Virus record (IMG/VR): IMGVR_UViG_3300027586_000025
Coordinates: 1 to 33,007 of that record
Reading direction: 5' to 3' (one strand)
Source: a virus
Taxonomy: Duplodnaviria > Caudoviricetes
DNA: 33,007 nucleotides
This document shows, in pieces, positions 2,960-28,325 of this stretch (its first letter is position 1; every line of letters starts with the position of its first letter). The notes under the pieces are model-generated. The model saw only the letters and a program-made list of their open reading frames with translations, was not told where the DNA came from and did not search any database. The translations under genes and the position numbers were made by a program.

Positions 2960-3886
2960 TCATACAAAATCGACGCGAGCCAAGCCGTTCGTGTGACCGA
3001 ACGATCCGCCTGACGTCTGGTAAGCAAAATACTCAAGCATGTACGCTTCACGACGGATGTACATCGTGGTTGGTTCGAGCTCGTAGTTCTTGCCGATAAA
3101 CTTAGGTGATGCAAACATTAAAAGAGCATCTGTCGGGACAAGATTTCGCTTGATAGTCACAATCCAACGGCAGTTGAGGAAATTGGTTTCCGCCCAACCG
3201 TTCTTGATGATATCCTGCGAAAAATCGCCGCCCATTTCATCGCGCCCGAACTTGAGCAGTTCCTTGATCGTGATGTTATTCACGAGGCAAGTTTCCACTT
3301 CGAAGCGCGAAGGCGTGCGGGGCATAACCTTCAGTGCGTCTACCAGCGTCTCACGGGTGATCCCGCCGCTGATCGTCTCGTACTGAACTTCATTTGACAT
3401 AGCCACAGTGGCATCGGCAGTGGGCAGCACGGCGTTGAAGGCAGCAATAAACTTGCCGTCTTCTTCAGCGAGCATGTCCTTGATCATGTTGTCAGAAAGA
3501 ACCTGACGAATGTCGATCACGTAGGTCCGCAGTTCATCGACGTCCTTAACAGCGCGAGGCGACACAATCCGGTCAAACATGACGCGGTAGCGTGGGCCAC
3601 GGATGTAGAAGTTGATGGGGAGCGTCGCAAACGGGAGCGAAACAGCCGCCGGGGAATCTGGCTCTTTGTCCACAACCTTAACGGGCTTGTCAGTATCAAC
3701 CTGACGGTCGAGCTCGTCGTTGGTGATGGTCAGCGGCGGCATAATCCGTCGGTAGAACCCATCTTCACGCATCTTGGTGCGCGTGAAATCGTTAACTGCA
3801 TCAATGGCCTGCTTTTGCATGCCTGGGGTGTCGAGCTGCTCAAACAGTGTTTCGTTGAGCAGTTGTACTTCTTGCTGAGTGGGCAT
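2960..3886 (-). CDS. Major capsid protein (probable HK97 fold)
   Basis: 308 aa, strong GGAGG RBS, canonical protease-scaffold-decoration-MCP order. Pattern REDGFYRRIMPP...PRAVKDVDEL...IKDMLAEEDGKFI and a terminal GLARVDF fit HK97-fold capsids. Confidence 0.8.
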   Translation of the reverse strand: MPTQQEVQLLNETLFEQLDTPGMQKQAIDAVNDFTRTKMREDGFYRRIMPPLTITNDELDRQVDTDKPVKVVDKEPDSPAAVSLPFATLPINFYIRGPRYRVMFDRIVSPRAVKDVDELRTYVIDIRQVLSDNMIKDMLAEEDGKFIAAFNAVLPTADATVAMSNEVQYETISGGITRETLVDALKVMPRTPSRFEVETCLVNNITIKELLKFGRDEMGGDFSQDIIKNGWAETNFLNCRWIVTIKRNLVPTDALLMFASPKFIGKNYELEPTTMYIRREAYMLEYFAYQTSGGSFGHTNGLARVDFV

Positions 3887-6379: not shown

Positions 6380-7837
6380 TCATGTGACATAATTTTGCAG
6401 TACGCAGTGGGTTGTTGTCAACCAATTATTTCCATATTTTTCACAAATTGTTGCAAGTGCGGCAATCTTATACAAAGCGTAATGTTGCGCAAGAGCCGTT
6501 TCTGCGTTGCCACTAGCTTGTTTTTCTAGTGAAAACTCGGCTGTCCGCACATTCCGAAGCGCAGCTAAATAGGCGCGTTTCTCGATGTTTAGCGGTAGTA
6601 CGCTGTGTGTAATGGCCACCTTTTCAGCCCACGCGCGCACAGCTGGTGCTGCTGACGGCGCAGGATAATATGAATTATTTTCAAGTAACGCTACAACGTC
6701 CGTGTTGTTGGCGACGTCTGAGAAAACGCTCGGTAAAGCATAACTCACTGCGCTTATTAGTCTCGCATCGGCTGACTTTACTGTCAATGTTAAAAAGTCG
6801 CGTAACGGCAAAATGACGCCGACATCAGCGAGGCCGCGCAAAACTTCGGCTAGTTTTATTGCTGAAAAACTTGACACGTCGATGGGTGGTTGCACGGCTG
6901 GAGATGAGGCCAGCGCTACCTGTGTCCAGTTTTGCGCGAGCGCAGCAGACTTTTCGGCCTGTACCAGCTGGTTTAACACAGCAAGTTGTAACTGCCCGCG
7001 CACAGACGGAGGTGTAGAGAACTCAAACCCGATCGGCGCAGTCACGCCCAGCTGCTCAGCTAACTCGGCGCCCGACATAGTGCTTACACCGGCTGCTTTT
7101 TCGAGCTTACCGGAGATATACGCAATCCTGTCTGCCGGGCGAAAAACGTGCGATATATCGAAGAAACTAGGGTTGGGGTTATCGGCGTGTAACACGTGCC
7201 CGTCTTCTAGTACTCGGCCAATGTTGTGCTTTAACCCGCCGGCTTTACAGTGCCCGCCATGCTCACACGAGTCACAATACTCCGCGCGCGTCTTGGCAGA
7301 GTTACCGCACGCTGAACACTTGTCAAACGGAATCTTGCACGCCATGGACACGGCGATGTCTTTGTCGTCAGCAAGCTTTTCAATCTCTTTGTCGGCAAGC
7401 AGGCCGCCGTTACGCTCGGCAGCTTCTTTTGAGCCGTTTAGTGCAACGACAAGTTCAATGCGGCGCATGGGCTCGTGGTAGGCGCTGGCTTTAATGATAC
7501 CGAAGCTTTTAGCCGGGTTTTTATTTGCGTGGTCCCGGTAAAACCGAGCAAACTTCTCAAATGTCGGGTGGTACTGCTGGCAGCACTCTCGAGTAAAGCC
7601 GTCGCCGTTGCGGTTTGGGCCGTAATCCTCGGTCGCTCCGATGGCGATCATATGCACAGGAACTTCATCTTTTGCGAATTTAATGTGCTGTAGTTTGTTG
7701 GCAAATTCAGCCCCGGCCCGCTTGATAAGCACCTGTTTGTCGGCGCCCAATAGGCCGCGACTAGATATCTTAATCAGCGCTGCAACCGGTTCGCTAAAGT
7801 CTTGCGCGCCGGGTTGAATAACTTTAATCATGCTCAT
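6380..7837 (-). CDS. Prohead (maturation) protease with Cys/His Zn-binding insert
   Basis: PNRNGDGF...FYRDHANKNP...RRIELVV...VSMACKIPFDKCSACGN...YCDSC...HC...FFDISHVFRPADRIA: His/Ser assemblin/HK97-type protease pattern of large phages, located just upstream of the scaffold. Confidence 0.75.
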   Translation of the reverse strand: MSMIKVIQPGAQDFSEPVAALIKISSRGLLGADKQVLIKRAGAEFANKLQHIKFAKDEVPVHMIAIGATEDYGPNRNGDGFTRECCQQYHPTFEKFARFYRDHANKNPAKSFGIIKASAYHEPMRRIELVVALNGSKEAAERNGGLLADKEIEKLADDKDIAVSMACKIPFDKCSACGNSAKTRAEYCDSCEHGGHCKAGGLKHNIGRVLEDGHVLHADNPNPSFFDISHVFRPADRIAYISGKLEKAAGVSTMSGAELAEQLGVTAPIGFEFSTPPSVRGQLQLAVLNQLVQAEKSAALAQNWTQVALASSPAVQPPIDVSSFSAIKLAEVLRGLADVGVILPLRDFLTLTVKSADARLISAVSYALPSVFSDVANNTDVVALLENNSYYPAPSAAPAVRAWAEKVAITHSVLPLNIEKRAYLAALRNVRTAEFSLEKQASGNAETALAQHYALYKIAALATICEKYGNNWLTTTHCVLQNYVT

Positions 7838-7847
7838 AGTAGTTCAC

Positions 7848-9215
7848 TTAGCCCCCGGCTATCGCCTGAACGTTATTTATCTGCTTTACTTCCGCTATCG
7901 CCTTATCGCGATCTGCGCGCAGTTTGTCCATTTCTAACAACTGCTTCACGTCAAAATCTGCCAGCCCGCCAGACTCGAGGCGTTTACGCAATACAGACCC
8001 CATCAAACCCGGCGAATCAGCAAATTGCGGCGCCAAATCTGTAATAGAGTTAAACGCCTCTGCAATCTCTGCCGGATCGTGGCCCGAGATAACCGGGTCG
8101 TTTAACATCAGATCGTGCAGGACGCCGTTGGTGCGAATTTTATGCATTGCCATTTCGTGCGCCGGGTCCTGCAGTTCGTCATAGATCTTTTTAACTGCCC
8201 CGGGTGGCTTGTCGCTTGCGCCAAACACTTGCGCCGCCGGGTCGCGCAAGATGCCGCCTACTGCACGTACTGGCGCCATCGGGTCCATAAGCGTTGGTTT
8301 AAACGGTTTATCGGACGGAGCAGAGCTTTTTAATAACACCGGCTCATCGGCTGGGTTGTTTAAGATCGAGCCTGTCAGAAATTGTTGGGCGGCTTTCTGA
8401 CTAACCGCGTTTGCTTTTTTTGAGCTGTGTGCCTCATTTGCGCCGTTATAGGCTTCGACACTACCAATGACGTCAGTCACGAGCGTGTAGATGGGATTGT
8501 CGCCAAAGTGCTGTAACTTAGTCGCCGCCTGTTTTTCAAAATGTGGATAAACTGCGGCAATCTTCTGGAGAACAGATACGCCGGTGTCTCCTAGTCTCAG
8601 GCCGACTTCCGTTACGGCGTCTTGGAACGACATATTTCCAGGAGTGCGGAAATACGTGTTAAGTTCTTCGAGGGCCGCGGCCGCCTTGTTATACGTAGCT
8701 GTAACGACACGCCGCGATTCTTCTTCGGCGTGCTTCACAGCTGTCTTTTCGCTGTGGGCGCGCATGGCTTCGGCGTGGGCGTCCCGGGGTGGCGCAACAT
8801 ATGTTTTAGCCGGCAACGCAACTTGGGCAGCCGCTGTTTTATCAAGCGCGCTTCGGCGACGAGCTAAAAAGCCACTGGGCGGCACTGCGTACTCAGTCGA
8901 CACAATTGAGTTCCGCACAATCTCGCCAGAAGTCTTGACTTGTTTTGGATACAAAGCTTCGGTGACTGCGTGAATGTCGGCGAGCTGGAAGTCCGCCGAT
9001 TTTTCTAGCGTATCTTCGCCCTGTTCGCGCTGCTTGGTGGTGCGGCCCGTGTTGTACGCATGCACCATCAGGTTAATATGCCCGGCCGGAATTTCAGCCT
9101 CGGAGGCGCTTTTGATGATAGCCTCATTGGGGGTTGCGCCAGCATTTACGCGATTGGCGGCGTTTTCGATTGCCGCGATTAATTTTTGCTCTGCTTGCTT
9201 ATTAAGTGGGCGCAT
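7848..9215 (-). CDS. Hypothetical internal head protein, KxA-rich and Cys-free
   Basis: 455 aa, helical, at least 11 K-x-[AS] motifs, no Cys; overlaps the upstream gene by 14 nt. Confidence 0.75.
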   Translation of the reverse strand: MRPLNKQAEQKLIAAIENAANRVNAGATPNEAIIKSASEAEIPAGHINLMVHAYNTGRTTKQREQGEDTLEKSADFQLADIHAVTEALYPKQVKTSGEIVRNSIVSTEYAVPPSGFLARRRSALDKTAAAQVALPAKTYVAPPRDAHAEAMRAHSEKTAVKHAEEESRRVVTATYNKAAAALEELNTYFRTPGNMSFQDAVTEVGLRLGDTGVSVLQKIAAVYPHFEKQAATKLQHFGDNPIYTLVTDVIGSVEAYNGANEAHSSKKANAVSQKAAQQFLTGSILNNPADEPVLLKSSAPSDKPFKPTLMDPMAPVRAVGGILRDPAAQVFGASDKPPGAVKKIYDELQDPAHEMAMHKIRTNGVLHDLMLNDPVISGHDPAEIAEAFNSITDLAPQFADSPGLMGSVLRKRLESGGLADFDVKQLLEMDKLRADRDKAIAEVKQINNVQAIAGG

Positions 9216-10210: not shown

Positions 10211-13289
<3,079 letters not shown>

Positions 13290-13399
13290 TAATATAAAGT
13301 TTACCGACTACGCCCTTTGCAGTAAAGGGGGACTAATCTTTTCATATAAGTTACATCTGGATAAGCAATTATTGAATAGTTTTGCTCTGTGGTTAACCG

Positions 13400-13780: not shown

Positions 13781-13790
13781 GAATCACCTA

Positions 13791-14195
13791 TTAAGAATTT
13801 TCGACTGGGAGGGAAACAGCGGCCGCGGCTTTCGCGCGCACAAGCGGCAACAGGCTTTCGATAGCGCCCGATACAACGTGCAGAAAAATAGCGCGCACAG
13901 CAGCCCGGGAGAGCAGCCAGAATGGGTATGCAAGCGTCGGCACGCAGCTGTCGGCAAAGGCATCAAATAAAGCTGCTGCGGCATCAACGGCCCAGACTTT
14001 CTTTTCTTCGCCGGTCACCGGCAAAACATCGATAGTCGTCATCACGACTTGCAGCAGGGCTACAGTCAGCTCGCCAAACTCGGACAGCGTAAGCCCGTTC
14101 CGGGCGCGGTCTTTTGCGACGGCAATAAAAGTAGCTATTTTTTCGGCAAACGCTGCGGGGGCTTGCGCAGCCTGGACGGGGGCTAATGATATCAT
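13791..14195 (-). CDS. Hypothetical hydrophobic helical (possibly membrane-associated) protein
   Basis: Start moved to ATG 14195 to avoid overlap; about 134 aa with amphipathic/hydrophobic helices. Confidence 0.65.
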   Translation of the reverse strand: MISLAPVQAAQAPAAFAEKIATFIAVAKDRARNGLTLSEFGELTVALLQVVMTTIDVLPVTGEEKKVWAVDAAAALFDAFADSCVPTLAYPFWLLSRAAVRAIFLHVVSGAIESLLPLVRAKAAAAVSLPVENS

Positions 14196-14208
14196 TGGTT
14201 TTGCTTTC

Positions 14209-16590
14209 TTATGAGTTACCAGCAGAAGCACCGAGGTCAATTTCTTGGGCTGCGTCTTCGGGATGCGCTTCGATCGTTTTCTGCTTGAGAAACAAGATTA
14301 CGTCGCCGAGCATTTCAAAAGCGTTCCGCAGCGAGTCTTCTAGTTCGGGCATATCAGACTTGCCGTACCGGTCAGCGAACTTATCGCCGTGCCAGTAGAA
14401 CATGAATAAAATACGGCCGAGCTTGTCGAGGCCTTTGGTGAGATCGCCCATGTAGCGGTCAACAAGGCTGTCGTCGCGCACAGCCCGCAGCATAGACCCG
14501 ATCATGGCCGTATCGAACACTTCTTTTTGGCCAGACTGCGCAGCGTCGACAACCGTGCGAACATCTTTTTTGTCAAACATAGGATTCGGGTTGTAGACGC
14601 TGCGATCAGTGTTACTAGCGCTCATGCCAGATACAGGAAGGCCGACGTCGACGCCCATTTGCGTGGGGACGCTGGCGCCCATAATAGTCTCGCCGCCCAT
14701 GACAGGCCCTGGGTCGGCCGGGGCTGTTGCGCCCTGGTTGACCATCATTGGCGCGCCGTATGGGTCGGCATATTTCACTCGGCAGGCGAACTTTCGGTAC
14801 GTGGCTGCTTTGGACAAGATATCTCGAGCAGCGTCTTCGCGTAGGCCGTGGGTTTGAACAAGCGAGATCAAGCCGCCGATCGCCGATGTCTTCTCGCCGT
14901 TTACCGTGACCTCTGTGCCGTTATGGTACACCGTGAGCATGGCTGTCTTTTGCATGATAGCCAGCTGTGCGTCGGCCAGATTGCCGGGCATGAGAGCCGG
15001 GGTATCGCTTTCGCCACACCCGCATGCGCCTTGGCCATCTGCGTCAGCTACATCGTCTTCGCCCTTGCTAACCTTGAGCAGCTTATAGCCTTCTGGCACA
15101 AAGATATCGCCCATGCTGATGCGGAGCTTGGAGCCTTTTTTGGCGTTCAAATGGACGCGCACGCCATCTCGGTACTTGTCGTAATTCAGTGGGTCTGTGT
15201 AAGCGCAGCCCATGATGCTGCCGCGGGGCATGTGATTGGAGTGATCTTCAAGATGAACTTCGTATGAAGTGGTTCCTTGTTCACCTTCACCGTCACCATA
15301 CTCGCGCAAAACACGCACAGGCACAGTTGCGTCGCCGTTTTTGCCAATGAGCATGTGCCGGGCCAAGCCGCTGGGCAATGTGTTGGCGTCCGGGAGCTTG
15401 TCAAACCACTCGTCAAACTCTTCGCGCTCAATCTGGACTAATGCGAATACCTGGTCTGCGCGAACGCTAACCCAATCCGGCGTGCCTTCTGTGCGCACGA
15501 CGGTTACAAAGTTAGTCCGTTTCGTAGCGCCTTGGGGAAACACGGCGACATAACAGCGCTCAATGTTGCCCGGCTTTACAAGAATGTCGTAGAGCCCGCT
15601 TTGGGACGGCGTAAACAACTTCTTTTCGACTTGTACGTTATACGGGACAGAAACGTTGTCGCGGTCCCGGTCGTCTTTGATCAGCACGCCGTCGCGCAAC
15701 AGCTTTTCTTGGTCTTCTTCGGTATACGTGTGCGGCAACTTTGTCTGAATAGTCACTTCGGGAGACAGGATCTTGAGCCCCGACATAGCCTCTGGGACTT
15801 TAGGCGCGTCAGACAAAATGCTGGCCACTTTGACGCTGGTTTCGCGCGCAGTTGCTAGGGCCACAGCTTCTTTAATGATATCTAATCCGTGAAACTCATC
15901 GATGGCTGCTGCGATCTGTGGCGCGTACTGGCAGGTCTTTACAAGCATCTGCAGCGTGACGAGCCGAGCTTCTTTCAGAAACTTCTTAAGATCAAGGGCC
16001 CGACCCATTTCGCTAAAGGCGTTTGCGGTGTTAAGCGTCGCTGTTTTAGCCAGTGCCGGCATCACAGCCGTCATCATTTCTTTGAGCGTGGGCTTCGCTG
16101 ACCCGAACTTCGACGGCGAGCGCGAAAGCTGCGTAAAGTCCGGCTGGCTCTGGCCAAGCTGTGTAAGGTTCTTGTCGACGCCGCTCCCCAGAATGTTGGG
16201 CTTACGGTTAATCAGGTAGTTAATCCAGTTTTCCTTGAGCGGCACGAACATATCTTGATTCTTGATGTACAAGAGCTCGTGGCCCTTGAGATCGCCGTTT
16301 AAAAAGAAAACGGGCGCGTACAGCCAGTTTGCGCCGACTTTAAACGCAAACACGCCGACAGCCTTGGTGTTCTCTCGGTTGCGATCAAGCAGCTGGAACC
16401 CGATTTCGTGGTCGAGCAGCTTGGGGGCCGAGTCACGGAGATAAGCATGCGCCAAATTGCTGAAAGACTGCTCAAACGACGTGTCGTCGCCTCGGCCGCC
16501 TAAATCAGCTTGCTTGGTCTGGCTGCGGTCGTGAGAGCGCATGACCGTTAACCAATGCTTCAGTGGCGTTTCTTTGCTTTTGTTATACAC
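14209..16590 (-). CDS. Large hypothetical protein (candidate inner-head/core protein)
   Basis: About 793 aa; GTG at 16590 follows a GGAGGTGA RBS; multiple KxA motifs (KQAD, KTAT, KVAS, KTAM, KYAD). Confidence 0.8.
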   Translation of the reverse strand: MYNKSKETPLKHWLTVMRSHDRSQTKQADLGGRGDDTSFEQSFSNLAHAYLRDSAPKLLDHEIGFQLLDRNRENTKAVGVFAFKVGANWLYAPVFFLNGDLKGHELLYIKNQDMFVPLKENWINYLINRKPNILGSGVDKNLTQLGQSQPDFTQLSRSPSKFGSAKPTLKEMMTAVMPALAKTATLNTANAFSEMGRALDLKKFLKEARLVTLQMLVKTCQYAPQIAAAIDEFHGLDIIKEAVALATARETSVKVASILSDAPKVPEAMSGLKILSPEVTIQTKLPHTYTEEDQEKLLRDGVLIKDDRDRDNVSVPYNVQVEKKLFTPSQSGLYDILVKPGNIERCYVAVFPQGATKRTNFVTVVRTEGTPDWVSVRADQVFALVQIEREEFDEWFDKLPDANTLPSGLARHMLIGKNGDATVPVRVLREYGDGEGEQGTTSYEVHLEDHSNHMPRGSIMGCAYTDPLNYDKYRDGVRVHLNAKKGSKLRISMGDIFVPEGYKLLKVSKGEDDVADADGQGACGCGESDTPALMPGNLADAQLAIMQKTAMLTVYHNGTEVTVNGEKTSAIGGLISLVQTHGLREDAARDILSKAATYRKFACRVKYADPYGAPMMVNQGATAPADPGPVMGGETIMGASVPTQMGVDVGLPVSGMSASNTDRSVYNPNPMFDKKDVRTVVDAAQSGQKEVFDTAMIGSMLRAVRDDSLVDRYMGDLTKGLDKLGRILFMFYWHGDKFADRYGKSDMPELEDSLRNAFEMLGDVILFLKQKTIEAHPEDAAQEIDLGASAGNS

Positions 16591-16608
16591 AATCACCTCC
16601 ATGCGACC
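16591..16608 (-). promoter_or_regulatory. RBS hairpin with ANGGAG hexaloop before the ~793-aa gene
   Basis: Minus strand GGTCGC-ATGGAG-GTGATT (6 pairs, three of them G-U), directly followed by the GTG start. Confidence 0.5.
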
Positions 16609-16673
16609 TGCGGAGCTGCTACACTTCTTAATAATTTACAGTGTCTAAGCCCCTCTATCCTACCGAAATACGG

Positions 16674-18548
16674 TTAAGGCTTCCACCCGCTTACTGTGCC
16701 GGCGACGCCAAACGTTTCACCGCGGGCTAGGGATGGTACATAACTACTACTGTTTGTGTCGCTGGTGGCGCCGCGGTGCACGCTGTCCATAAGGCCTTTT
16801 TCTTGATATGAGCCGAGCATTCGTGTCATCCAGTCGGGGTCGTTAGAAATGTTAGCCATTCCGCGAACCATTTCTGGCTTAAACGGCGGCGGCTCTTTAT
16901 GGGCTTGGATTGCGTTAATACCGTACTGCTTTAAATTTGTAGTCACATTTTTACCAATCTTTGTGCCGATTGAGTAGTGCAATACTGGTTGCTCTAAATA
17001 ATGCCCGGCTAGGCTGCCTGGCGCGCCCAAGACGCTGCCGTCTCGCGGGGCCCAGTTTCGCTCAAGCATCGAATACGGTACAACGTCGTCCGGGGAGTAG
17101 TCGCCGTGCTCGTCAGTGAGCCGGACATGATTAATAAGCCCGCGCGAAAGCAGCTCAACGTTGCGTCTGTGCACAGGGATATTGCTGTTCTTCATAACTT
17201 GGCGCATAGCTGTTACAAAGTAACGCCGGCCTTCGCCGATGCCTTTGTGCTGCACGATTTCTGCTGGACTCGGCATGCCGTCTGACATAACGTCGCCGGC
17301 TTCTAGCTCGTCGCCTTTTTTAACGCTGACGCTTCGCCCGGTCGGCACATAGTGGTCCTGCCCGTTTACTTGGACGTAAAAACCGCCCTGAGCTGCCGGC
17401 CGGATTTCTTGCACGCGGCCGTCTGTCTGTGAATGCGTCGCGCCGTCTGGATATTTCTTAGGCACTTGTACAAGCGCATTTAAAGCTTTAAAGCCAGCGA
17501 TGCCGCCAGCGCCGCCGACGCCGCCGGAGTGCTTGCTGGATATCTGCGCCTGTGTGGTCGGCTCAGAGAGCGCCTGGGCCGCGGCGATACCGACATAGTC
17601 ACCAATGGGCGGCACGCGGCCTTTTTCTCGGTAACCGACGTCATTGGCATACACGCCGCCGTCTTCTGGGCCGCCGACGATCGGGCTGCGCACTAAGATA
17701 TCTTTGACGCCCATGCCTTTGATGTCTTGCAGGATCTTTGGCGTCAGTACGGTATTGCGCTTATACGGCCCAACAGCGCGCGATAACATAGCGCCCTCGT
17801 TGTCTACGTCGTCTACATCGGTCGGGAAGCCGCGCTCGTGGGCAGTTGCGTTGCGTTCCGTGTCAGCCTCGTCGACGTCTGTGACCAGCAGCCTGTGCGC
17901 CATTTGCGTAAGCTGCTTGCCGTAATATCCAGCGTCCGCAGTAGCTGACTTTAAGTCAATAACGCCTTTTCTCGTGCCAAAAGCGCCGGCAAAGTATTCA
18001 ACTGGCGTCAGCCCCTGCGAGTACCCGTGCGTGACTGGAATTGGAATCGGCTCGCTGCGGTGGTCGAGATACTGCATGTCTGCGCCAAGTAACGAGTTCA
18101 GCTGAAACTTGTTACCGACACCGCTGCCTGTAACCTGGTGCGCAAGCGGGTTTCCCGATCCCACCGCTTCGGCATACACGTCGTTTACAAGCTGCGTCTG
18201 GGCTGACGACTGTAACTGCAGGATCTTTAAATTACGCTGTTTATCGTCAAGCGCTCTATCGGCCAAGATGCGTTGCAACTGCTGCCGGACGTGTAACTGC
18301 GTTTGTTTGGCGGCTAAACTAGGCTTAATATCGTTTAGTCCGACTGATAGCCCGTTGGTGGTGTACGCCGCGTCAAGCGCGACATCGTGCAGGCGCTTCA
18401 TCGTATCGCGATAGTTGTCGGGGTGCTGCTTGGCTAATTGTGTGGCCAACGCGCCCATTGTCTTTTTGTCTAATACGCGGTTGTAGTCCCGCATATCGGC
18501 CGGAAGCGCCTCGTTTATCAGCACCTGCCCCATCGTTGTTTTTAACAT
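16674..18548 (-). CDS. rpoC: DNA-directed RNA polymerase beta' subunit, C-terminal part (bridge helix, trigger loop)
   Basis: KTTMGQVLIN; GLSVGLNDI; YSQGLTPVEYFAGAFGTRKGVIDLKSATADAGYYGKQL (bridge helix); VGIAAAQALSEPTTQAQISSKHSGG (trigger loop); HRRNVELLSR. Start ATG 18548 with GGAG. Confidence 0.93.
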   Translation of the reverse strand: MLKTTMGQVLINEALPADMRDYNRVLDKKTMGALATQLAKQHPDNYRDTMKRLHDVALDAAYTTNGLSVGLNDIKPSLAAKQTQLHVRQQLQRILADRALDDKQRNLKILQLQSSAQTQLVNDVYAEAVGSGNPLAHQVTGSGVGNKFQLNSLLGADMQYLDHRSEPIPIPVTHGYSQGLTPVEYFAGAFGTRKGVIDLKSATADAGYYGKQLTQMAHRLLVTDVDEADTERNATAHERGFPTDVDDVDNEGAMLSRAVGPYKRNTVLTPKILQDIKGMGVKDILVRSPIVGGPEDGGVYANDVGYREKGRVPPIGDYVGIAAAQALSEPTTQAQISSKHSGGVGGAGGIAGFKALNALVQVPKKYPDGATHSQTDGRVQEIRPAAQGGFYVQVNGQDHYVPTGRSVSVKKGDELEAGDVMSDGMPSPAEIVQHKGIGEGRRYFVTAMRQVMKNSNIPVHRRNVELLSRGLINHVRLTDEHGDYSPDDVVPYSMLERNWAPRDGSVLGAPGSLAGHYLEQPVLHYSIGTKIGKNVTTNLKQYGINAIQAHKEPPPFKPEMVRGMANISNDPDWMTRMLGSYQEKGLMDSVHRGATSDTNSSSYVPSLARGETFGVAGTVSGWKP

Positions 18549-18573
18549 AAGGCGGCTCCGACTGACGCGCATA

Positions 18574-18783
18574 TTAATTGTCTAAAACAGTCACCACAGG
18601 GGCAGTGTCGCAGCTAATTAATTTTAAAAGTCCGGGGAAGTCTTTTTGAGTTACGTCAGAATAAACAATGCCATCAGACATGTGCATGGCCACAAAAATA
18701 GGGTTGCCCATGTCGTCGTGTAGAACGAGGCTGTCGGCAGAGTGCTCTGCCGGCTGCATGTTGAACAACGTCTTAACGAGCAT
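18574..18783 (-). CDS. Small hypothetical protein between the split RNAP genes
   Basis: About 69 aa from ATG 18783; overlaps the upstream stop and fills the gap exactly. Confidence 0.6.
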   Translation of the reverse strand: MLVKTLFNMQPAEHSADSLVLHDDMGNPIFVAMHMSDGIVYSDVTQKDFPGLLKLISCDTAPVVTVLDN

Positions 18784-19384
18784 TGTCGGTGAAACTCCGA
18801 CAAAGGGCGGCGACTGCACTGGCTTTCACGTATAACGCGTTTGCGGCTTTGCCGGCAGACGGATCAGGCGGAGCGCTTGGAGCGGGCGGCGCAGACGGGC
18901 CAGCCGGAGCAGCCGGGCTAGGCGGAGCGGGTGGAAGTGGCGGGGCCATTGGGCCGCCCTGCATTGCCGACTCAGCCGGCGGGGCTGTTGCCGAGCCTGG
19001 TGGCAGAACAAGCGCCTCTGGCGGCAATTGAATGCCCATGGCGTTCATGATCGCCGTAAGCTGTTGCTGCATATTGTACTGCCGGTAATCGTTCATAAGC
19101 ATGAACTGCTCGGGCTTCATCTTGGCTGGCCCTGCGGCACCTGGCGCGGCTGGCGGCGCAGCTGGCATCGGGGCTGCGGCCATCATGGCTGGGTCCATTG
19201 GCGGTGCTGCGCCCATCATAGAGGGGTCCATTGGCGGGGCAGCACCCATCGTGGCTGGGTCTACTGGTGGCACAGCGCCCATCATGGCAGGGTCCATCAT
19301 GGCTGGGTCCATGGCTGGATCTACGGCCGACTTCTCAAACAAGTTATTGGCCAGCGACAGTAGTTCTGGGTTCACTGTGTACAT
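18773..19384 (-). CDS. Pro/Met/Ala-rich low-complexity protein between the split RNAP genes
   Basis: 203 aa, GGAGG RBS, EKSA motif followed by DP(A/S)(M/T)MGA(A/V)PP(M/V) repeats. Confidence 0.8.
   Translation of the reverse strand: MYTVNPELLSLANNLFEKSAVDPAMDPAMMDPAMMGAVPPVDPATMGAAPPMDPSMMGAAPPMDPAMMAAAPMPAAPPAAPGAAGPAKMKPEQFMLMNDYRQYNMQQQLTAIMNAMGIQLPPEALVLPPGSATAPPAESAMQGGPMAPPLPPAPPSPAAPAGPSAPPAPSAPPDPSAGKAANALYVKASAVAALCRSFTDNAR
19178..19325. repeat. Imperfect 33-nt coding tandem repeat (DPAMMGAAPPM)
   Basis: Recurrent catcatggctgggtccat / gggtccattggcgg units. Confidence 0.8.
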
Positions 19385-19400
19385 AAAACCTCCATGTTTT
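19385..19400 (-). promoter_or_regulatory. RBS hairpin with ANGGAG hexaloop before the Pro/Met-rich gene
   Basis: Minus strand AAAAC-ATGGAG-GTTTT immediately followed by ATG. Confidence 0.6.
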
Positions 19401-19402
19401 GA

Positions 19403-22400
19403 TTACTTATCTTCCACAATATGCACAGGCGTGTCTACGCCTATTTCGCCGCGGCGGTACGCGGCCAACGCCGCTTGTTTATTCTGGTACACGCTAGGCT
19501 TTGTTTTGGTGTTAGTTCTGCTCGACGCGACGTAAAGCCCAGTTTGATAGTCTCTGTTGGGGACGTAATGCGCTTTAAACGACGCAGCAGAGAATAAATT
19601 CTTACTAGGAAGCATTTTAGCCACAGCTTCTTGAGCGGCGGCTTCGGTGCTAGGCACATGATAAGCCATCGCATCTCCGTCAAAATCAGCGCCAAACCCC
19701 TTTACTATTAAGGGGTTTATTTCCATGACTTTGTTCTTTGTCAGGCGCGGATAAAACGCCATCATGCCATATCTGTGTAAAACCGGCGCTCTGTTAATAA
19801 TAATTGGCCGCGAGCCCATCTGCGTGTTTAACTCGGCAAACGCAGCTTTGTCTTTCTTTTCAACAGCTTGGAGCGCCTGCATCCGAGGCATCCCACGGCG
19901 TACCAGCCCGCGCACCACAAACGGCTTGTAAATATCCCACGCTTTTTCTTCTGGCAGCGCAACTTGGTCCATGTCGAGATCTGGGTTGGGCGTGATGACA
20001 GCCCGGCCAACAAGATCGACAGTACTACTTAAAAGTTTGCGCTGCACGGTGCCGTACTTAGGCGAGCTGCCGAAGACTTTTGCTAAAAAACCCTTCACGT
20101 TCCGTTCGACGTTTTTGGGCTGCAGCGGTTCGCCAAGGCCGTGAACGGCTTTCATGGAGTCATATAAGTTAAGCCGTTCGTTGCCGACGTCTTCGAGAAC
20201 TCCGGCGCTTTCTTTGAGTACTGAGTTTGAGTCGAGCAGTTCTTTGTAAAGATAGTTAGCGTCATCTACGAGCGGCAGCTTCTTGGCGCCCATCGTTGAA
20301 ACCGGGCGAAACATCGGCGGGAGTACAGGTACTTTAGTGAGCATCCAGCTTTGTGGGTGAATCCCTGTCTTCTCGGCGGCTTTGAGATAGCCGAGTTTGC
20401 GCACAGCGGCGTCTCTGACAGTCTTGCGGCCCGACTTGATATCTTCTCGAGTCTGCTCAAGAGAGTGCGCGACATTAATTTTAGCCAAGGCGCCGCGAAT
20501 AGCTTCTGGGCCAGTCTTGTCAAATAACTGCTCTTGGCCAGACAACACGCCACGAAACTGCTTCTCTGTTAAGCCCAGTATGCGTCGAATCGGGTCTTCC
20601 ATCACGGGATTGGGCATCGGTTCGTGGAGCGTGATCTTGGACCAACGTGTACCGCCATGCCCGCCCGTAAGCGTCTCGTCAAAGAGGCCGCCTGCTTTTG
20701 GCTTCAGGCCGCTTTTCCAATCAACTGTTTCGCTGTTCTGAATCTCTCGGGCGCCAGCAAGACCGTCTACGTCCTTGTCTGTCATGGCCATAATGTGCGT
20801 CTTGGTGCCTTCACGTACAGTGTTAATGCCAGCTGCTTTGAGCTGGTTGATAAACTTTTCGTACACGTGCGGGATCTTCGGCAAGGGCGGCGCATATCCG
20901 GCCATGAATTGCGCCCAGTACTCAGGATTGGCTTGCCCGCGCACCATTTTGGCATCTCGAATAACGCTGCCGGCCCCGTGAGATAACAAAGCGCCCAGGT
21001 CTAACATGCCGACACGCTTCGCGCCTTCGCTGCCGCCCTTAGCTGGTGTGCCTTCTGCTGTATAGCCGCCTGTGGATCGCCCTTGGCCTTTTGACTCGCT
21101 GGTGTGGTGCAGCTTCATAAAGAATCTGCTCCCTGTAAGCACGCCGGGTATTTTGCGGCCTGTCTCTGGATCAACGACGTGCTCTGTATCTGTCAGCCCG
21201 TTTTTCTCCAGTTCTTTCTGCGCAAACTCAATTAAGTCTGTGGCGTTATCAAAGTCTTGGATTTTATAAGACTTCCCGGTTTTTGCGGCTATTTTGCCCA
21301 GAACAGCTTCGATGATCTGGGCTGGGTTTCCGCGGCTAATAAGACCCAACGGACTGACGAGCGACTCAAATGGCAGACCGTCTTTGTCGTGCGGCATCTG
21401 ATCGTCTGGCACCACTTCGGCAATAACGCCTTTGTCGCCGAATCTGCCAGTGAGTTTATCCCCGACTTCCATCTGCGCTTGGTTCTTCACGACAACGCTT
21501 ACGCCCTTATCTGTGTGCTCTACGTCCGTCACAATCCCGGGCGAATGATGGTCCCACGTAATAGTCTCATTGGCAAAGTTTCCTGCGCGGCCTCTGTGTA
21601 CCTTGCCGTATACCGTGTCGCGCTTTTTGGCGATGAGCACAAGAGGGTCACCGTAATTAACAGTCATGCCCTTTTTAACCGCGCCCTTGTCATCAAAGTT
21701 ATCGAGTATTTTTTTGTCATACTCGCCGGGAAACAAGCCGCGAAACGCATTCTTACCAACGTGTGTGTTGTCATCCCATTCGGCTTCGTGCTGATACATG
21801 TGCTCGCTGGTAAGACGCTTTGCGGCAGACTCGGAGATCACGATAGCGTCTTCATAGTTCTTACCTCGAAACGGCAGATAAGCTGTGCGCAAGTTCATAC
21901 CAAGGGCTGCTGCGCCGTCTTTATTTGTAAAGTTCGACGTAGCAATAAGCTGGCCGGGCTTTACAACATCGCCGGGCTGCACCGTTGGCTTCTGCGTCCA
22001 AAACGTTTTTCTATTAAACGGCATGTCGTTATACAAGTCGATCGTGTGCTTTACGCCGTCTTTATCTCGCACGACCATACTGTCAGCTGTGATTGAGTCT
22101 ACGCGCCCATGAACAGCAGCTTTTATTGCGCCCAGTGTTTCGCCCATGTCATCTTCATATGAACGTGTCGGGTCATCTGCGCGGCCTGACTGCACGTGTG
22201 GCGCCTCAGCGTTTACGAGCGGCAGAGCTTGCGTAAACATTCTTGAGCCCATGATCACGCGGTGGCCTTTGACCATTGTTTTCATTGGCACCATGTTCGT
22301 GAGCCCAGAGAACGTGTTATCCATGTTAGGTAACCCGTACTGAGCTTCTGCGCGCGGGATGTATTTCATCTTGCCGCCAACCAGAGCAGACACCATGGGC

Positions 22401-23863
22401 AAATTGCTCTTCTCTTCGCCAGGAAACGCCAACGGAATACTTGCCAGTTCGTACGGCGTTTTATGCGTAATTTCGCCAGTTTTTAGGTCTACAACGGGCG
22501 TATAAATCTTGCCGTTTTCGCCTTTAAATGCGCCCCTGGCAAAGCGCATATCGACGCCGACTTTACCGCTTTCTGGGGTGCGCAAAAAATCTACAAAGCC
22601 CAAATGACTAGGCTGTACGCTGCGCGATTCGGCCGGCACAGCGTCAAGGCTACCGATACCGCCTTCGCCGAGCCGGGTAACACGCGTCTGATGGTCGTAG
22701 ATTTCAGCCGGGTTTATCTCTTCTAAACTCGAGCCTAAGCCAGAGCCGATGAGCGCAGCACTAATAGCTTTGTTAAACACACCAGTTGGAATGTGGTCGA
22801 GCGATTTGCGGGCCGTGGCTTTCCAAAGTAACTGACGCAAGTTCTTTTTATCTTTGGTAAACCGCTCGCCTAGCAAGTCTTCTGGGCCGTGAATCGACTG
22901 GAAAGCCATGCTGTCTCGGTCATCTGAGTCAGCTTCTTTGCGATTGACAGCGATGAGCTTTTTTGTGATAGCCAGTACGACTTCTGGCGTTAAATTTTTA
23001 TGGGGCGCGCCAAGCGTGTGCTGCATAACATCTGGGTCGAGCTCAGTCTTTACAAACTCTGCCAAGATAGCCGCGGCTTTGGTGGCAGCGTCGGCGTCGG
23101 GGACTGGCTTAAACACCATGCGCTGATACAGCTTATCCAGCGTGCCAGCATCGCCTTTTTCCATATTCGCCGTGGTGATCTCGTTGCCCCACGCTTTGCG
23201 AATATCTTGTTCTGGTATGCCGAGCGTTTTTAACAGAGGCATGAGCGGAATCTGAGCTTGGCCAAGTTGCACTTTAAATACGCCGGTCTGCGCGTCGAGA
23301 TAATATCTATGCGAGCGCCCTTTTCCTGGCAGCGTATTCACGTGCGACTCGAGCTCGCCGTTTTCTTTCTCGCGGGTATACACGCCCGCTTTTAAGCGCA
23401 TTTGGTGGGCAAGCGTGTACTCTACGCCTTTGTTCACGAACGTACCGGAGTCAGTTAAGTACGGCACGTTAGCGATCGTGGCGCGGCGCTGGGCAACCTG
23501 TTCGCCCGTCTTGTTGTCGAGCAGCGTCCATGTGCCCTGCATCTTGCGCGTTAACGAGCCGCGCGTCAGCACAGCTTTCTTCTGGTCTGCTCGCGTGTAG
23601 GCTTCAGGCCCAGAGTAATCAACATCGTGCAAGCGCAACGTGTACAAGTCATTCTGGATTGGCTCTATTCCCTGGGCACTGCTGAGAGTTCGCTCAAAGA
23701 TATTTTTACGCAGGCCCGGCACGTCGCCAAACTTGCGTAACTTTGGTTGAGCAGCCGGCTGCATGAGCATAGGCGCAGCGAGCGGCGGAAGTGCTGGCGG
23801 CCCGGCTGGCATAGCGGGCATGGCTGGCGTGGCGGGCACACTAGGCAAAATCGACTCGATCAT
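19403..23863 (-). CDS. rpoBC: DNA-directed RNA polymerase beta subunit fused to N-terminal part of beta' (catalytic DFDGD)
   Basis: beta motifs: PYLTDSGTFVNKG, RTPESGKVG, MGSRMFTQALP, GKNYEDAIVISE, GDKLTGRFGDKGVI, PLGLISRGN, FMKLHH. beta' motifs: GGLFDETLTG, VPVLPPMFRP, VDLVGRAVI, NRAPVLHR, GADFDGDAMAYHVP. Junction at about 20790-20830. Confidence 0.96.
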   Translation of the reverse strand: MIESILPSVPATPAMPAMPAGPPALPPLAAPMLMQPAAQPKLRKFGDVPGLRKNIFERTLSSAQGIEPIQNDLYTLRLHDVDYSGPEAYTRADQKKAVLTRGSLTRKMQGTWTLLDNKTGEQVAQRRATIANVPYLTDSGTFVNKGVEYTLAHQMRLKAGVYTREKENGELESHVNTLPGKGRSHRYYLDAQTGVFKVQLGQAQIPLMPLLKTLGIPEQDIRKAWGNEITTANMEKGDAGTLDKLYQRMVFKPVPDADAATKAAAILAEFVKTELDPDVMQHTLGAPHKNLTPEVVLAITKKLIAVNRKEADSDDRDSMAFQSIHGPEDLLGERFTKDKKNLRQLLWKATARKSLDHIPTGVFNKAISAALIGSGLGSSLEEINPAEIYDHQTRVTRLGEGGIGSLDAVPAESRSVQPSHLGFVDFLRTPESGKVGVDMRFARGAFKGENGKIYTPVVDLKTGEITHKTPYELASIPLAFPGEEKSNLPMVSALVGGKMKYIPRAEAQYGLPNMDNTFSGLTNMVPMKTMVKGHRVIMGSRMFTQALPLVNAEAPHVQSGRADDPTRSYEDDMGETLGAIKAAVHGRVDSITADSMVVRDKDGVKHTIDLYNDMPFNRKTFWTQKPTVQPGDVVKPGQLIATSNFTNKDGAAALGMNLRTAYLPFRGKNYEDAIVISESAAKRLTSEHMYQHEAEWDDNTHVGKNAFRGLFPGEYDKKILDNFDDKGAVKKGMTVNYGDPLVLIAKKRDTVYGKVHRGRAGNFANETITWDHHSPGIVTDVEHTDKGVSVVVKNQAQMEVGDKLTGRFGDKGVIAEVVPDDQMPHDKDGLPFESLVSPLGLISRGNPAQIIEAVLGKIAAKTGKSYKIQDFDNATDLIEFAQKELEKNGLTDTEHVVDPETGRKIPGVLTGSRFFMKLHHTSESKGQGRSTGGYTAEGTPAKGGSEGAKRVGMLDLGALLSHGAGSVIRDAKMVRGQANPEYWAQFMAGYAPPLPKIPHVYEKFINQLKAAGINTVREGTKTHIMAMTDKDVDGLAGAREIQNSETVDWKSGLKPKAGGLFDETLTGGHGGTRWSKITLHEPMPNPVMEDPIRRILGLTEKQFRGVLSGQEQLFDKTGPEAIRGALAKINVAHSLEQTREDIKSGRKTVRDAAVRKLGYLKAAEKTGIHPQSWMLTKVPVLPPMFRPVSTMGAKKLPLVDDANYLYKELLDSNSVLKESAGVLEDVGNERLNLYDSMKAVHGLGEPLQPKNVERNVKGFLAKVFGSSPKYGTVQRKLLSSTVDLVGRAVITPNPDLDMDQVALPEEKAWDIYKPFVVRGLVRRGMPRMQALQAVEKKDKAAFAELNTQMGSRPIIINRAPVLHRYGMMAFYPRLTKNKVMEINPLIVKGFGADFDGDAMAYHVPSTEAAAQEAVAKMLPSKNLFSAASFKAHYVPNRDYQTGLYVASSRTNTKTKPSVYQNKQAALAAYRRGEIGVDTPVHIVEDK

Positions 23864-23878
23864 GGCGGCGCTCCCGGT

Positions 23879-24775
23879 TTATTCGGTGGCGCTGCGCTGC
23901 GAAAGCAGTTTGACGTTTTCGAGTTCTTGTGGGTCAACCCATTGCGTCGGCAGAGACTGTAGGCGCCGCTGCAGTTTTCTTGCTTTTTCAGTGTTATTAC
24001 CAGCAGCAAGATTTTTTGTGCGGTTGTACATGTAATGCGCGCCCACTCCGCCAAGGCCAACGCCGCCGATTAAACCCAGAGCAACAGTGTTCTCGGCCCC
24101 AGCGCGCACTAACTCGGCCAAAGCAGAGTGCGCGCGAGTAGCCCAACTCGCCATTTTTTCGTAAGCGGCGTCAAGCGAAGCAGACTTTGTACCGGTGAGC
24201 GCGTCGAGGTACTCTTGCTTGGCTGCCATAACATCAGCAGCTCGGCGTTTTCTTTTGCGCGACTCTACAAAATGGCGCATCATGGCGTTCCCTGCAAGCG
24301 CGCCCGCAGCTGGCCCAAGTACGCCAAGCGCCCGGTCTGTGCCGCCTTGCATGTAACTCATGTCTTTGTGGCCCGGGGCGTGAGGGAGCAGCCCTTCGGC
24401 ATTCCCGGCAAGAGACGAAAGCAACTGGCCCGGGACATTGATTGCTTTTCCGGCAGCCCTATAAATGTTGCGTTGAATGTCGGCTAGGTCAGCAAATTTG
24501 CTTAACCCGAGATCTTTCTGCGCTTCTTGTTCCTCGGCTCGGCGTTTCTGCTGCCGACGAACGTGCTGCATAAGATAATACAGGCCCGTGGCTCCGGCAC
24601 CGGTCCCAACACCGATGAGCGTCTTATTCAGCAACCGCTTACCGACATCCTCGTATTGCGCGTCGGTCACAGCGCCTACTGGAGCAGCGGGCGGAGCTAC
24701 CGCGGCTTTCGCTGGCGCTGGTGTATCGCCCCAGAAGCCCTCGGCCATCTTTTCGTTGCTCTTGTGTTGTGCCAT
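23879..24775 (-). CDS. Hypothetical Gly-zipper protein (candidate ejection protein)
   Basis: 298 aa, three Gly-rich hydrophobic segments each followed by a basic stretch, KMA/KFA/KSA/KMA motifs, no Cys. Confidence 0.75.
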   Translation of the reverse strand: MAQHKSNEKMAEGFWGDTPAPAKAAVAPPAAPVGAVTDAQYEDVGKRLLNKTLIGVGTGAGATGLYYLMQHVRRQQKRRAEEQEAQKDLGLSKFADLADIQRNIYRAAGKAINVPGQLLSSLAGNAEGLLPHAPGHKDMSYMQGGTDRALGVLGPAAGALAGNAMMRHFVESRKRKRRAADVMAAKQEYLDALTGTKSASLDAAYEKMASWATRAHSALAELVRAGAENTVALGLIGGVGLGGVGAHYMYNRTKNLAAGNNTEKARKLQRRLQSLPTQWVDPQELENVKLLSQRSATE

Positions 24776-24802
24776 GTTACGCGGCCCTTTTCTAGCCTTA
24801 AT

Positions 24803-25153
24803 TTATCGTGCTGGCGGCGCTACGCCGTAAATTTGCATCCACTCGAGCCAGACACGAAAATGCGTTTTACTCTCGTCCCAGTTGTCGATGCGCTTTAATA
24901 GGCGGTACCAGCCATTCACGATCTTACCATGTATATTGTCAAATTCTGCTTTTTGCGCCGGGTCCCAGAGCTCAAACATATTCGATTTAAAGTCGTACTG
25001 TAAGTCTATGTCTTCGACTTCGTCTTGTTTTAAGTCCCGTTTAGCCGCCGGATTGGCTAATACAGGGAACCCGTCCATTGTGCCGGGCCACTGCAGCCGG
25101 TAGTCGCCGTGCTGGGCGCCAGATGACTCGCCGTGGTACTGTGTAAAGCTCAT
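24803..25153 (-). CDS. Hypothetical protein
   Basis: 116 aa, globular composition, tight packing with neighbours, no Cys. Confidence 0.75.
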   Translation of the reverse strand: MSFTQYHGESSGAQHGDYRLQWPGTMDGFPVLANPAAKRDLKQDEVEDIDLQYDFKSNMFELWDPAQKAEFDNIHGKIVNGWYRLLKRIDNWDESKTHFRVWLEWMQIYGVAPPAR

Positions 25154-25168
25154 AGTTATCTAGCTAAG

Positions 25169-25585
25169 TTATCTAGCCGACTTGTAATCGTAATTTTTCT
25201 TGCGCGTACGTAGTCTGGCAGCATACGCCCGATATGTCGCTGCTAATTCTTCATTTTTAATATCTTCTGCCGATATATCTGGCTCAGTTGTTCTGGCGGC
25301 GCCATAACCCAGTGCCGCGCCGCCCAGTAAGCCAGCAGCAGACGGGAGCCCAATAGCCAGCCCAGCGGCAGCTGGAAGAACTTGCGTAGCCGCGGTGTGG
25401 ACCACTTTTGGCGTTGCATAAGCAAGGCCGCCCAAAGCTGCAAGCCCAGCGGTCCCCAGCCATTTCCAGGGAAAAGCTTGCTTTACCCGCATATCTAAGT
25501 TCTCGCCGGCAAGGCCCTCTTCGGCGCAACGAGCTAAAAAGCCGAGTTTAAACGCCATTTTGGGGTCATAGTTTGTGAAGTCCAT
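25169..25585 (-). CDS. Hypothetical Gly-zipper protein
   Basis: 138 aa; N-terminal KMAFKLGFLARCAEEG...KQA followed by GxxxG-rich hydrophobic segments. Confidence 0.75.
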   Translation of the reverse strand: MDFTNYDPKMAFKLGFLARCAEEGLAGENLDMRVKQAFPWKWLGTAGLAALGGLAYATPKVVHTAATQVLPAAAGLAIGLPSAAGLLGGAALGYGAARTTEPDISAEDIKNEELAATYRAYAARLRTRKKNYDYKSAR

Positions 25586-26077
25586 TTAAAACTCTCCCGG
25601 CAAAATTAGTTTCTTAGGCGGCGCGCCAGCGCTAAAGTCGGGCGTGGCGTACCGGCCTGTGTCTTTACCCAGCGGCATGGCTCCCGGAAGTGCCGACCGG
25701 AAATTAGCGCTGCTGGCCAAAGATATCTTACTCTTTCGCCCCGGACGGTGTCTCATGAACCAAGCGTCTACTTTAGGGTCGTCGCGGTCGCCCTGCTCTT
25801 TTGCCTCTTTCGTACAAGCCACCATGTCGTCGATGGCTATCTGTAAGTCGAGCCTGTCGGAAACAATCCATTTATGGCTAGGCGTGTCGGCCATCATGGT
25901 GCGCAGCCGTTGAGCTTCTTCGCTTAATGCCTGCGCCCGCTGAAGAAATTCTTTACGGGTTAAGACAAAGAACTCGCCGGTTTCTTCGTCGTGCATGCAC
26001 ACAAACCCGTTCTGGGCATAAAACTTAAGGCCGCGGTACGTGTAGCATTTACCGGTATTTTTCGCTAGTTTCGACAT
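25586..26077 (-). CDS. Hypothetical protein
   Basis: 163 aa; its stop directly abuts the next start. Confidence 0.75.
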   Translation of the reverse strand: MSKLAKNTGKCYTYRGLKFYAQNGFVCMHDEETGEFFVLTRKEFLQRAQALSEEAQRLRTMMADTPSHKWIVSDRLDLQIAIDDMVACTKEAKEQGDRDDPKVDAWFMRHRPGRKSKISLASSANFRSALPGAMPLGKDTGRYATPDFSAGAPPKKLILPGEF

Positions 26078-26111
26078 GCTGCGCCTAGAGGATAAACGGC
26101 TGTATTTCCGA

Positions 26112-26426
26112 CTACTTGTCAGAAGAAACGTCAGGTAAAGGATTGGCTTGAAGCTGCATGCTGGGCCGCTTTGGCCCAGTCCCGACGCTCCCTGTTTTGC
26201 AGTTCTGGCACTTTGTCCAGCTCAGCCCGTCGCCTGTGGGTACGCGACCGGTGCCTTTACAGACCGTGCAGTCTTTTGTGTCTACCAGTACGGGCGCTAC
26301 CGCCGTACGAGGAAGCAGAGCAGCATAAGCAGCCTCTGCAGCGACCACGCTGACATAATCTTTTTGTGGCGGCGTGGAGACATTGGTAAGCACCGGGGCC
26401 AGTAATAAAAATAACCACTCAAACAT
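26112..26426 (-). CDS. Signal-peptide/membrane-anchored protein with DnaJ-like Zn-finger motif
   Basis: Hydrophobic N-terminus MFEWLFLLLAPVL; CTVCKGTGRVPTGDG...KCQNC. Confidence 0.7.
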   Translation of the reverse strand: MFEWLFLLLAPVLTNVSTPPQKDYVSVVAAEAAYAALLPRTAVAPVLVDTKDCTVCKGTGRVPTGDGLSWTKCQNCKTGSVGTGPKRPSMQLQANPLPDVSSDK

Positions 26427-26453
26427 GCGTAACCTTTCTATACTGTGCGATTC

Positions 26454-27479: not shown

Positions 27480-27521
27480 TGTGCGTCTCCAGCATGCGTT
27501 TAAAGTGCGGCGAAAAGCGTA

Positions 27522-28282: not shown

Positions 28283-28325
28283 AGTATCTCCAGTTTAACT
28301 TGAATTGTGTTAAGTAAACACCAGT

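Follow-up and report, generated by a model that had tools for sequence, protein, structure and literature searches.

The virion RNA polymerase (RNAP) of phage N4 is a single-chain enzyme of the T7 type, about 3,400 amino acids (aa) long. In RNAPs of the cellular type, the zinc sites of beta' are usually regarded as structural. The one at the N-terminus also offers regulators such as SspA a docking surface (PMC7515715). Here we describe an RNAP of an uncultured lake phage, encoded in the virus record IMGVR_UViG_3300027586_000025, a stretch of 33,007 bases (the window) in which all long open reading frames (ORFs) lie on the minus strand. It is a two-barrel enzyme of the bacterial type with a sigma factor, and so not a single-chain T7-type enzyme as in N4. 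It contains no cysteine and neither beta' zinc site, and it is very probably packaged in the virion, judging from its homologues in Salmonella phage Arash.

Virion RNAPs are an established functional class, and the cysteine rule is also already known. The virion RNAP (vRNAP) and ejection proteins of Schitoviridae are cysteine-suppressed and enter the host (PMC11445570). N4 gp50 and DEV gp71 are cysteine-suppressed and ejected, and the chains described here, seen as genes alone, are cysteine-free as well. In the crAss-like phage phi14:2, the virion RNAP gp66 is a two-barrel enzyme with 2 cysteines in 2180 aa, both towards its ends, and with nearly cysteine-free virion neighbours; it consists of one chain that is far diverged from cellular RNAP (PMC7481178). 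gp66 was not among the 40 tblastn matches listed for the longer of the two window chains. In a literature search that covered few subscription papers, we found no description of a near-cellular, sigma-associated enzyme without a zinc motif, and none of cysteine or zinc loss in the Arash-like RNAP family. If the boldest reading given below is correct, the window encodes an RNAP of the cellular type that is free of zinc by nature, and whose loss can be followed in steps on a tree. The window RNAP also carries the cysteine-free signature of ejected proteins beyond the N4-type and crAss-type enzymes, to a polymerase that is near-cellular and sigma-associated. A near-cellular RNAP without either zinc site would show what zinc serves in folding, promoter opening and termination, and the cultured family member Arash makes the delivery question testable now.

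Two RNAP chains without cysteine or zinc sites

The chains, the catalytic motif and the positions of the two zinc sites are as follows.

19403..23863, minus strand: RNAP chain A (ORF-A), the whole of beta and the N-terminal catalytic half of beta' in one 1486-aa protein; no cysteine
16674..18572, minus strand: RNAP chain B (ORF-B), C-terminal half of beta' (632 aa if counted from the first ATG); no cysteine
19673..19693, minus strand: catalytic aspartate triad GADFDGD in chain A; variants of the motif were surveyed across 150 representatives
20627..20692, minus strand: position of zinc site 1 (the beta' N-terminal zinc ribbon), with 32 alignment columns deleted and a short Gly-rich linker instead (GGLFD...SKITL)
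17634..17690, minus strand: zinc site 2 of beta' (RSPIVGG...DVG), with the three distal ligands changed to G, Y and D and the upstream ligand lost in a short acidic insertion

Chain A contains the Pfam domains Rpb2_6, Rpb2_3, Rpb1_1 and Rpb1_2, and its sequence matches in the PDB are bacterial beta and beta'. Chain B contains Rpb1_5 and also has PDB matches; its best Foldseek matches are bacterial beta' subunits, at low template modelling (TM) scores. Chain B probably starts at the second ATG, at 18548, which agrees with the length and start of database homologues and gives a protein of 624 aa. The AlphaFold model of chain B has a mean predicted local distance difference test score (pLDDT) of 65, with values below 50 at residues 189-226 and 289-350. 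These include the replaced site 2, so the model was uninformative as a guide to how this region is stabilised. The RNAP region is covered by contigs from four lake or freshwater runs of four separate studies (30, 30, 30 and 27 of 30 bins); thus, it is not an assembly artefact. Between the two chains lie two small ORFs, 18574-18819 and 18773-19384, the second with a high content of Pro, Ala and Met.

Together the chains have no cysteine in about 2,110 aa, while the mean of the 32 window ORFs counted is 0.73%. At that rate the chance of finding none in 2110 aa is 2e-7. It is 3.8e-4 at the non-ligand rate of four cellular RNAPs (0.37%) and 3.3e-3 at the rate of the best-covered virion proteins of Arash (0.27%). 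As the other two frames of ORF-A contain 73 and 61 TGY triplets, DNA composition does not account for the absence. The zinc sites were compared in a MAFFT alignment with four cellular and three other phage beta' sequences. All four cellular controls have both four-cysteine sites and the window RNAP has neither: the deletion at site 1 is clean and takes out all four ligands, and all four ligands of site 2 are replaced in chain B. A first-pass annotation of this DNA had reported two chains without cysteine, a short linker in place of the beta' ribbon and a lost second zinc site, and each of these points was borne out (no cysteine in 1486 aa or in 632/624 aa; changes at 20692-20627 and at 17690-17634). 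It had placed the RNAP at 17630..23863. The upper end is indeed the start of chain A, but 17630 cuts ORF-B in mid-gene, as that gene reaches 16674.

Homologues in the Arash virion

A tblastn search of cultured phages matched four records over 95% of chain A, with about 32% identity: Salmonella phage Arash and the Vibrio phages D69, D148 and D181. The Arash homologues, gp206 and gp216 (OQ632216; PMC10585845), are 32% and 25% identical to chains A and B and have the same layout, a fusion of beta with the N-terminal part of beta' and a separate C-terminal part of beta'. The 32-column gap at ribbon 1 is identical in the window, Arash, D69 and two further genomes, G004 and G005. Arash and D69 differ from the window in that they have one or two non-ligand cysteines and all four site-2 ligands, where the window has none; the catalytic motif of Arash is AADYDGD rather than GADFDGD. 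The kinship extends beyond RNAP. Arash has the capsid protein, gp222, gp218, gp233, terminase, portal, sheath, gp10 and gp217 in common with the window and G003, a closely related complete genome. Window ORFs themselves match the Arash major capsid protein, gp222, gp218 and gp233, in agreement with the first-pass view that the RNAP genes are embedded among virion genes.

In mass spectrometry (MS) of Arash virions, gp206 was the top protein by spectral count, with 128 unique peptides and 3516 spectra, and gp216 had 40 and 1210 (PMC10585845). Expressed per 100 aa, this corresponds to 231 spectra for gp206 and 200 for gp216, compared with 200 for the sigma factor gp10 and 243 for the helicase gp217, and with 434, 151 and 98 for capsid, portal and sheath; spectral counts saturate, and these values are not copy numbers. 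The ratio of unique to theoretical peptides is 1.2-1.85 for gp206, gp216, gp10 and gp217 and 0.04-0.26 for eight cytoplasmic enzymes. Homology to these particle proteins gives good support to the earlier suggestion that the window RNAP is packaged. From the 150 of 252 coding sequences of Arash that were entered, the 22 best-covered proteins average 0.27% cysteine and the 79 poorly covered ones 1.21% (p=2e-5). Well-covered virion proteins of Arash are thus cysteine-poor as a class, and part of the RNAP signal reflects this general trend. In the portion of the Arash paper's text available to us (PMC10585845), we found no mention of a fusion, zinc or cysteine in RNAP.

Conservation and order of losses

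We estimate that the RNAP family comprises about 1,000 matching IMG/VR stretches. We examined the best 120 matches for each chain, plus 150 more distant representatives at 43-59% identity. Cysteine is absent from 109 of the 120 chain A homologues; four have one. In the other seven there are 11-13, and these fall, a single residue excepted, within an insert of about 350 aa. For chain B, 118 of 120 lack cysteine, the other two carry an intein-like insert, and site 2 is without cysteine in all 120. Of the 25 shortest representatives, 19 have no cysteine, two have intein-like stretches and four have 1-7 cysteines in the core. In the 125 longer representatives, the polymerase core has 86 cysteines in 180,999 aa (0.048%, setting aside 129 cysteines at domain edges, or 0.12% with these included), and the inserts have 1742 in 86,743 aa (2.0%). 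Inserts were called inteins from their end motifs and are predictions, not individually confirmed. Zinc ribbon 1 is absent from 149 of the 150 representatives and was not located in the remaining one. Two ribbon-like cysteine patterns among the 150 were rejected as zinc ribbons, as they sit inside inteins and not in the polymerase.

The family RNAP is a hot spot for inteins, with 226 insertions in the 125 representatives. In six sequences (P0167, P0189, P0193, P0205, P0256 and P0267) an intein with its own four-cysteine finger sits exactly in the linker that replaces ribbon 1. Chain A of G005 (L074) has an insertion of about 370 aa at residues ~245-620 that is not intein-like and contains a CxxC...C...WC cluster and several K-x-A motifs; part of it resembles, by eye, a 2H-phosphoesterase-like ORF of the window.

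Site 2, with all four ligands, is retained in Arash, Vibrio phage D69 and the environmental loci L038, L124/L125, L136, L139, L142, L149 and L150. Arash gp216 has four cysteines, exactly the site-2 ligands, and the same is true of D69. L149 (2056 aa) and L150 (2067 aa) are single-chain RNAPs whose only cysteines are these four ligands. They carry the whole of beta and beta' in one chain and lie on the deepest branch of the family, so the window's split into two chains may be a derived state. We built a FastTree phylogeny from 48 rows and 1218 columns, in which five rows had an undefined site-2 state; the supports given are those of FastTree only. The fused RNAP family, an informal grouping for which we found no published definition, forms one clade (0.895), with the window alongside Arash and apart from the YerA41/Carin-5 lineage and bacteria. 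Keepers of site 2 occupy basal branches and have 0-2 core cysteines, and those that lost it form a nested clade (0.88) plus L127, which apparently lost the site separately and whose branch position is not settled. These positions suggest that the cysteine purge and ribbon-1 deletion came first and the loss of site 2 later. On the sequences compared, then, the site-1 deletion and the purge are family-wide, and site-2 loss is a later event within a subclade. The first-pass annotation would count cysteine and zinc ligands retained by close homologues against its own reading, and this is in part the case: the purge is conserved, but the site-2 ligands persist in Arash, D69 and the seven environmental loci. 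Thus, loss of both sites is not what permits packaging. Nor does packaging require the loss of site 2, as the Arash RNAP is found in particles with that site intact.

Sigma factor, helicase and controls

The proteins that accompany RNAP in Arash particles share its lack of cysteine. Arash gp10 and gp217 have none, whereas the undetected Arash sigma factor gp196 has 3 and three other Arash helicases have 5-9. The gp10 orthologue is cysteine-free in five of five complete relatives, and the gp217 orthologue in all three that have one. Other proteins of these relatives are not depleted: portal has 8-14 cysteines, terminase 10-12, sheath 8-12, DNA polymerase 13-16, the gp222 homologue 9-10 and the gp218 homologue 5-10, where all but the last were counted in a subset of the genomes. 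For cytoplasmic enzymes of the phage (DNA polymerase, terminase) this amounts to about 1.3-1.9%. Among neighbouring families in 40 loci, no cysteine-free member was found among 24 gp218 homologues, 28 homologues of the protein at 26454-27479 or 29 M10 peptidases, and in G003 9 of 61 coding-strand ORFs of at least 300 aa lack cysteine. A rule that non-packaged sigma factors contain cysteine fits Arash and D69 but was abandoned, as the second sigma factor of G004 breaks it.

Comparison with other phage RNAPs

The RNAPs of YerA41, RHph_Y65, Va2 and Carin-5 have cellular levels of cysteine, with ribbon 1 in four of four and the site-2 pattern in three of four. In three of these phages the RNAP genes adjoin replication genes, unlike the window, where they lie among head genes. 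The virion RNAPs of phiKZ and AR9 are two-barrel enzymes like that of the window, but they are made of four subunits and accompanied by a second, non-virion RNAP. The window RNAP has two chains, and each of five complete relatives (204-224 kb) has a single PF00623 locus, although a far-diverged second enzyme could escape this search. phiKZ gp180 lacks the ribbon-1 cysteine pattern that the non-virion gp55 has (PMC7824862), as the window lacks ribbon 1; phiKZ gp80 shows a site-2-like pattern, and the window has none.

The mReC phage RNAPs (PMC7481178) resemble that of the window in that their beta and beta' align readily to bacterial RNAP. However, in all the phage rows of Supplementary Dataset 2 available to us, beta and beta' are separate proteins, and neither is as short as the 624-aa chain B. 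An mReC is recognized by beta and beta' matches of at least 800 aa each and the motif NADxDGD in beta', where the window has GADFDGD in the fused chain and a 624-aa second chain. The window capsid protein had no Pfam match to the mReC capsid family PF07068, nor was that family found in the five relatives, in a search run without a positive control. Among Pfam families, the terminase of G003 matches PF05876 only, and the mReC criterion is PF03237/VOG01069. By layout, catalytic motif, capsid and terminase families as read from sequence, the window RNAP is not an mReC. The words zinc, cysteine and virion were not found in the main text of the mReC paper (PMC7481178), as far as that text was accessible.

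Weighing the explanations

We propose a model in which an Arash-like phage of about 200 kb would make the two RNAP chains late in infection, together with its head proteins. By analogy with Arash, the chains would be packed into the capsid with the phage sigma factor and an SNF2 helicase. They would then pass the host envelope together with the DNA, and transcription could start from the phage's own promoters. Selection would act against free thiols, since mature chains would have to travel through an oxidising compartment in a partly unfolded state, for which N4 and the Schitoviridae provide a precedent. The family may first have deleted ribbon 1 and purged its non-ligand cysteines, and a nested subclade that includes the window phage may later have replaced site 2. 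We regard this combination of late synthesis, packing with sigma and helicase, delivery with DNA and selection against thiols as probable on balance; the reason for the purge is less sure than the packaging. A bolder extension, which we offer tentatively and are inclined to doubt, is that the family injects a complete transcription kit of a beta/beta' core split at new places, sigma factor and SNF2 helicase in roughly equal amounts. In the window's subclade the core would refold and work without structural zinc or cysteine, and would be the sole RNAP that reads two-part promoters independently of the host.

Several observations weigh against the model. No cultured member of the window's subclade was found, and the packaging data are those of Arash, to which the window chains are just 32% and 25% identical. 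The Arash particles were purified on a sucrose gradient, and the authors allow that abundant enzymes may co-purify (PMC10585845). YerA41 RNAP subunits are expressed early and yet were reported in particles (PMC7354516), which makes MS detection alone soft evidence. The absence of cysteine is also less specific than it might seem. The Arash capsid protein, gp227 and gp228 are cysteine-free as part of a general trend of virion proteins, short sigma-like proteins such as the second sigma of G004 often lack cysteine anyway, and of the four proteins inspected ahead of the beta' gene in the YerA41/Carin-5 lineage, three are cysteine-free, one of them annotated as sigma. Conversely, the phiKZ virion RNAP has 16 cysteines in the 2614 aa of its four subunits, and the family members P0183, P0232 and L132 retain 4-7 core cysteines. 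Finally, no gp217 helicase orthologue was found in two of the five complete genomes, and the searches for a host, on which the presence of a periplasm depends, gave no assignment.

Part of this evidence points to a different cause of the purge. The RNAP may be packaged and have lost its cysteines through long survival in an oxidising particle rather than through unfolded passage of the periplasm, in which case delivery could be folded or shielded. The well-covered virion proteins of Arash, capsid protein included, are cysteine-poor as a class; the four-cysteine zinc site that Arash retains sits uneasily with complete unfolding in a periplasm that is oxidising; and the phiKZ enzyme is delivered with its 16 cysteines. 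Yet structural proteins of the clade that are not ejected (portal, sheath and the gp218 homologue, at the counts given above) keep their cysteines, and the purge is confined to RNAP, sigma factor, helicase and a few proteins of no known role. We consider this account unlikely, if deserving of attention. Less likely still is that the enzyme is a cytoplasmic RNAP for middle or late genes, with the Arash peptides co-purified and the cysteine loss due to intracellular redox or metal economy. As the only cellular-type RNAP in five of five complete relatives, it may also serve late genes, and the Arash proteome lists many enzymes. However, the Arash RNAP peptides saturate like those of structural proteins and cytoplasmic enzymes do not, the phage's cytoplasmic enzymes keep their cysteine, and the RNAP genes lie among head genes on one strand. 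We give very little credence to the view that site-2 loss has nothing to do with delivery and that one freshwater subclade was simply sparing zinc or losing the site by neutral decay. Such a view suits the retention of the site in basal branches and its loss in the nested clade and, apparently separately, in L127. It leaves the family-wide loss of non-ligand cysteines and the cysteine-free sigma and helicase unexplained, and CxxC proteins as well as an M10 zinc peptidase persist in the same loci.

Neighbouring genes in the window

Five further genes bear on the setting of the RNAP; the capsid protein and the gp222 and gp218 homologues serve as controls for its cysteine count.

2960..3886, minus strand: major capsid protein, homologue of Arash gp226 (phmmer E 1.6e-35); 2 cysteines
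6380..7837, minus strand: homologue of the Arash virion protein gp222 (phmmer E 3.9e-31); 10 cysteines, family 2.5% cysteine
7848..9215, minus strand: K-x-A-rich protein, no cysteine; 11 of 21 homologues cysteine-free, K-x-A 11 against 4.5 expected
14209..16602, minus strand: gp218 homologue directly downstream of chain B (phmmer E 3.7e-12); 6 cysteines
23879..24775, minus strand: protein just upstream of chain A, no cysteine; five of five distinct homologues cysteine-free

From its position, the gp222 homologue is likely the prohead protease. The product of 7848-9215 is a candidate internal head or ejected protein, and that of 23879-24775 a candidate for co-ejection. K-x-A is enriched 2-4 fold in four genes, 4546-5010 (6 against 1.5), 6380-7837 (13 against 4.3), 7848-9215 (the values listed above) and 14209-16602 (10 against 4.7), and Arash gp220, gp223 and gp225 contain a stricter version of it. 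We consider it a candidate prohead-protease or packaging motif in head-region proteins. For the RNAP itself, a role in cleavage or packaging was rejected, since K-x-A is not enriched there (11 against 10.6 and 1 against 2.8) and not conserved near residue 260.

At 31465-32940 the window encodes a cysteine-free protein of 491 aa with a weak match to 2H phosphoesterases (E 2.6e-4, below the cut-off), possibly a co-packaged counter-defence enzyme. The block at 26112-29168 contains a conserved CxxC protein, a C1-like peptidase (a lead from the Atlas) and a metallopeptidase of the M10 type that carries a peptidoglycan-binding domain. Homologues of its genes occur in 29-37 of 40 loci, and it is possibly a lysis module.

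Promoter-like motifs, host and a fibre gene

A phage-specific two-part intergenic motif, which we count in favour of the model, occurs in the three close relatives G001, G002 and G003 in 6, 4 and 6 copies, on the coding strand only, and in no copy in a reversed control. It was not found in two distant genomes. An exact form was present in 8 IMG/VR stretches; these belong to 6 contigs, of which four also bear the RNAP. The phage sigma factor may use the motif as a promoter, for which it is a candidate. The motif matches the window once, at 18613-18641, on the non-coding strand with three mismatches, as happened in 2 of 100 shuffles; we took it as chance. At 101,800-108,300 of G003, several copies of the promoter-like motif are immediately preceded by a hairpin, a T-run and AGCTAT ends, an arrangement suggestive of paired terminators and promoters. 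The genome of G004 has the palindrome AAAACCGGTTTT 25 times, with 15 copies between genes and frequently right ahead of a ribosome-binding site, and it is a candidate promoter or operator. Sigma-70 promoters were not enriched in 13001-33000 of the window (8, against 10.7 in shuffles), nor were terminators (27 against 27.6). Whole-genome k-mer counts were discarded, as they returned coding bias. A host search among genome contigs yielded two contigs of 3-4 kb from one unclassified metagenome-assembled genome, and an Atlas search with the neighbouring peptidase returned viral clusters only. Within the head-gene block of the window, 10211-13186 carries a collagen-repeat fibre gene with a GC content of about 46-49%, against 52-57%.

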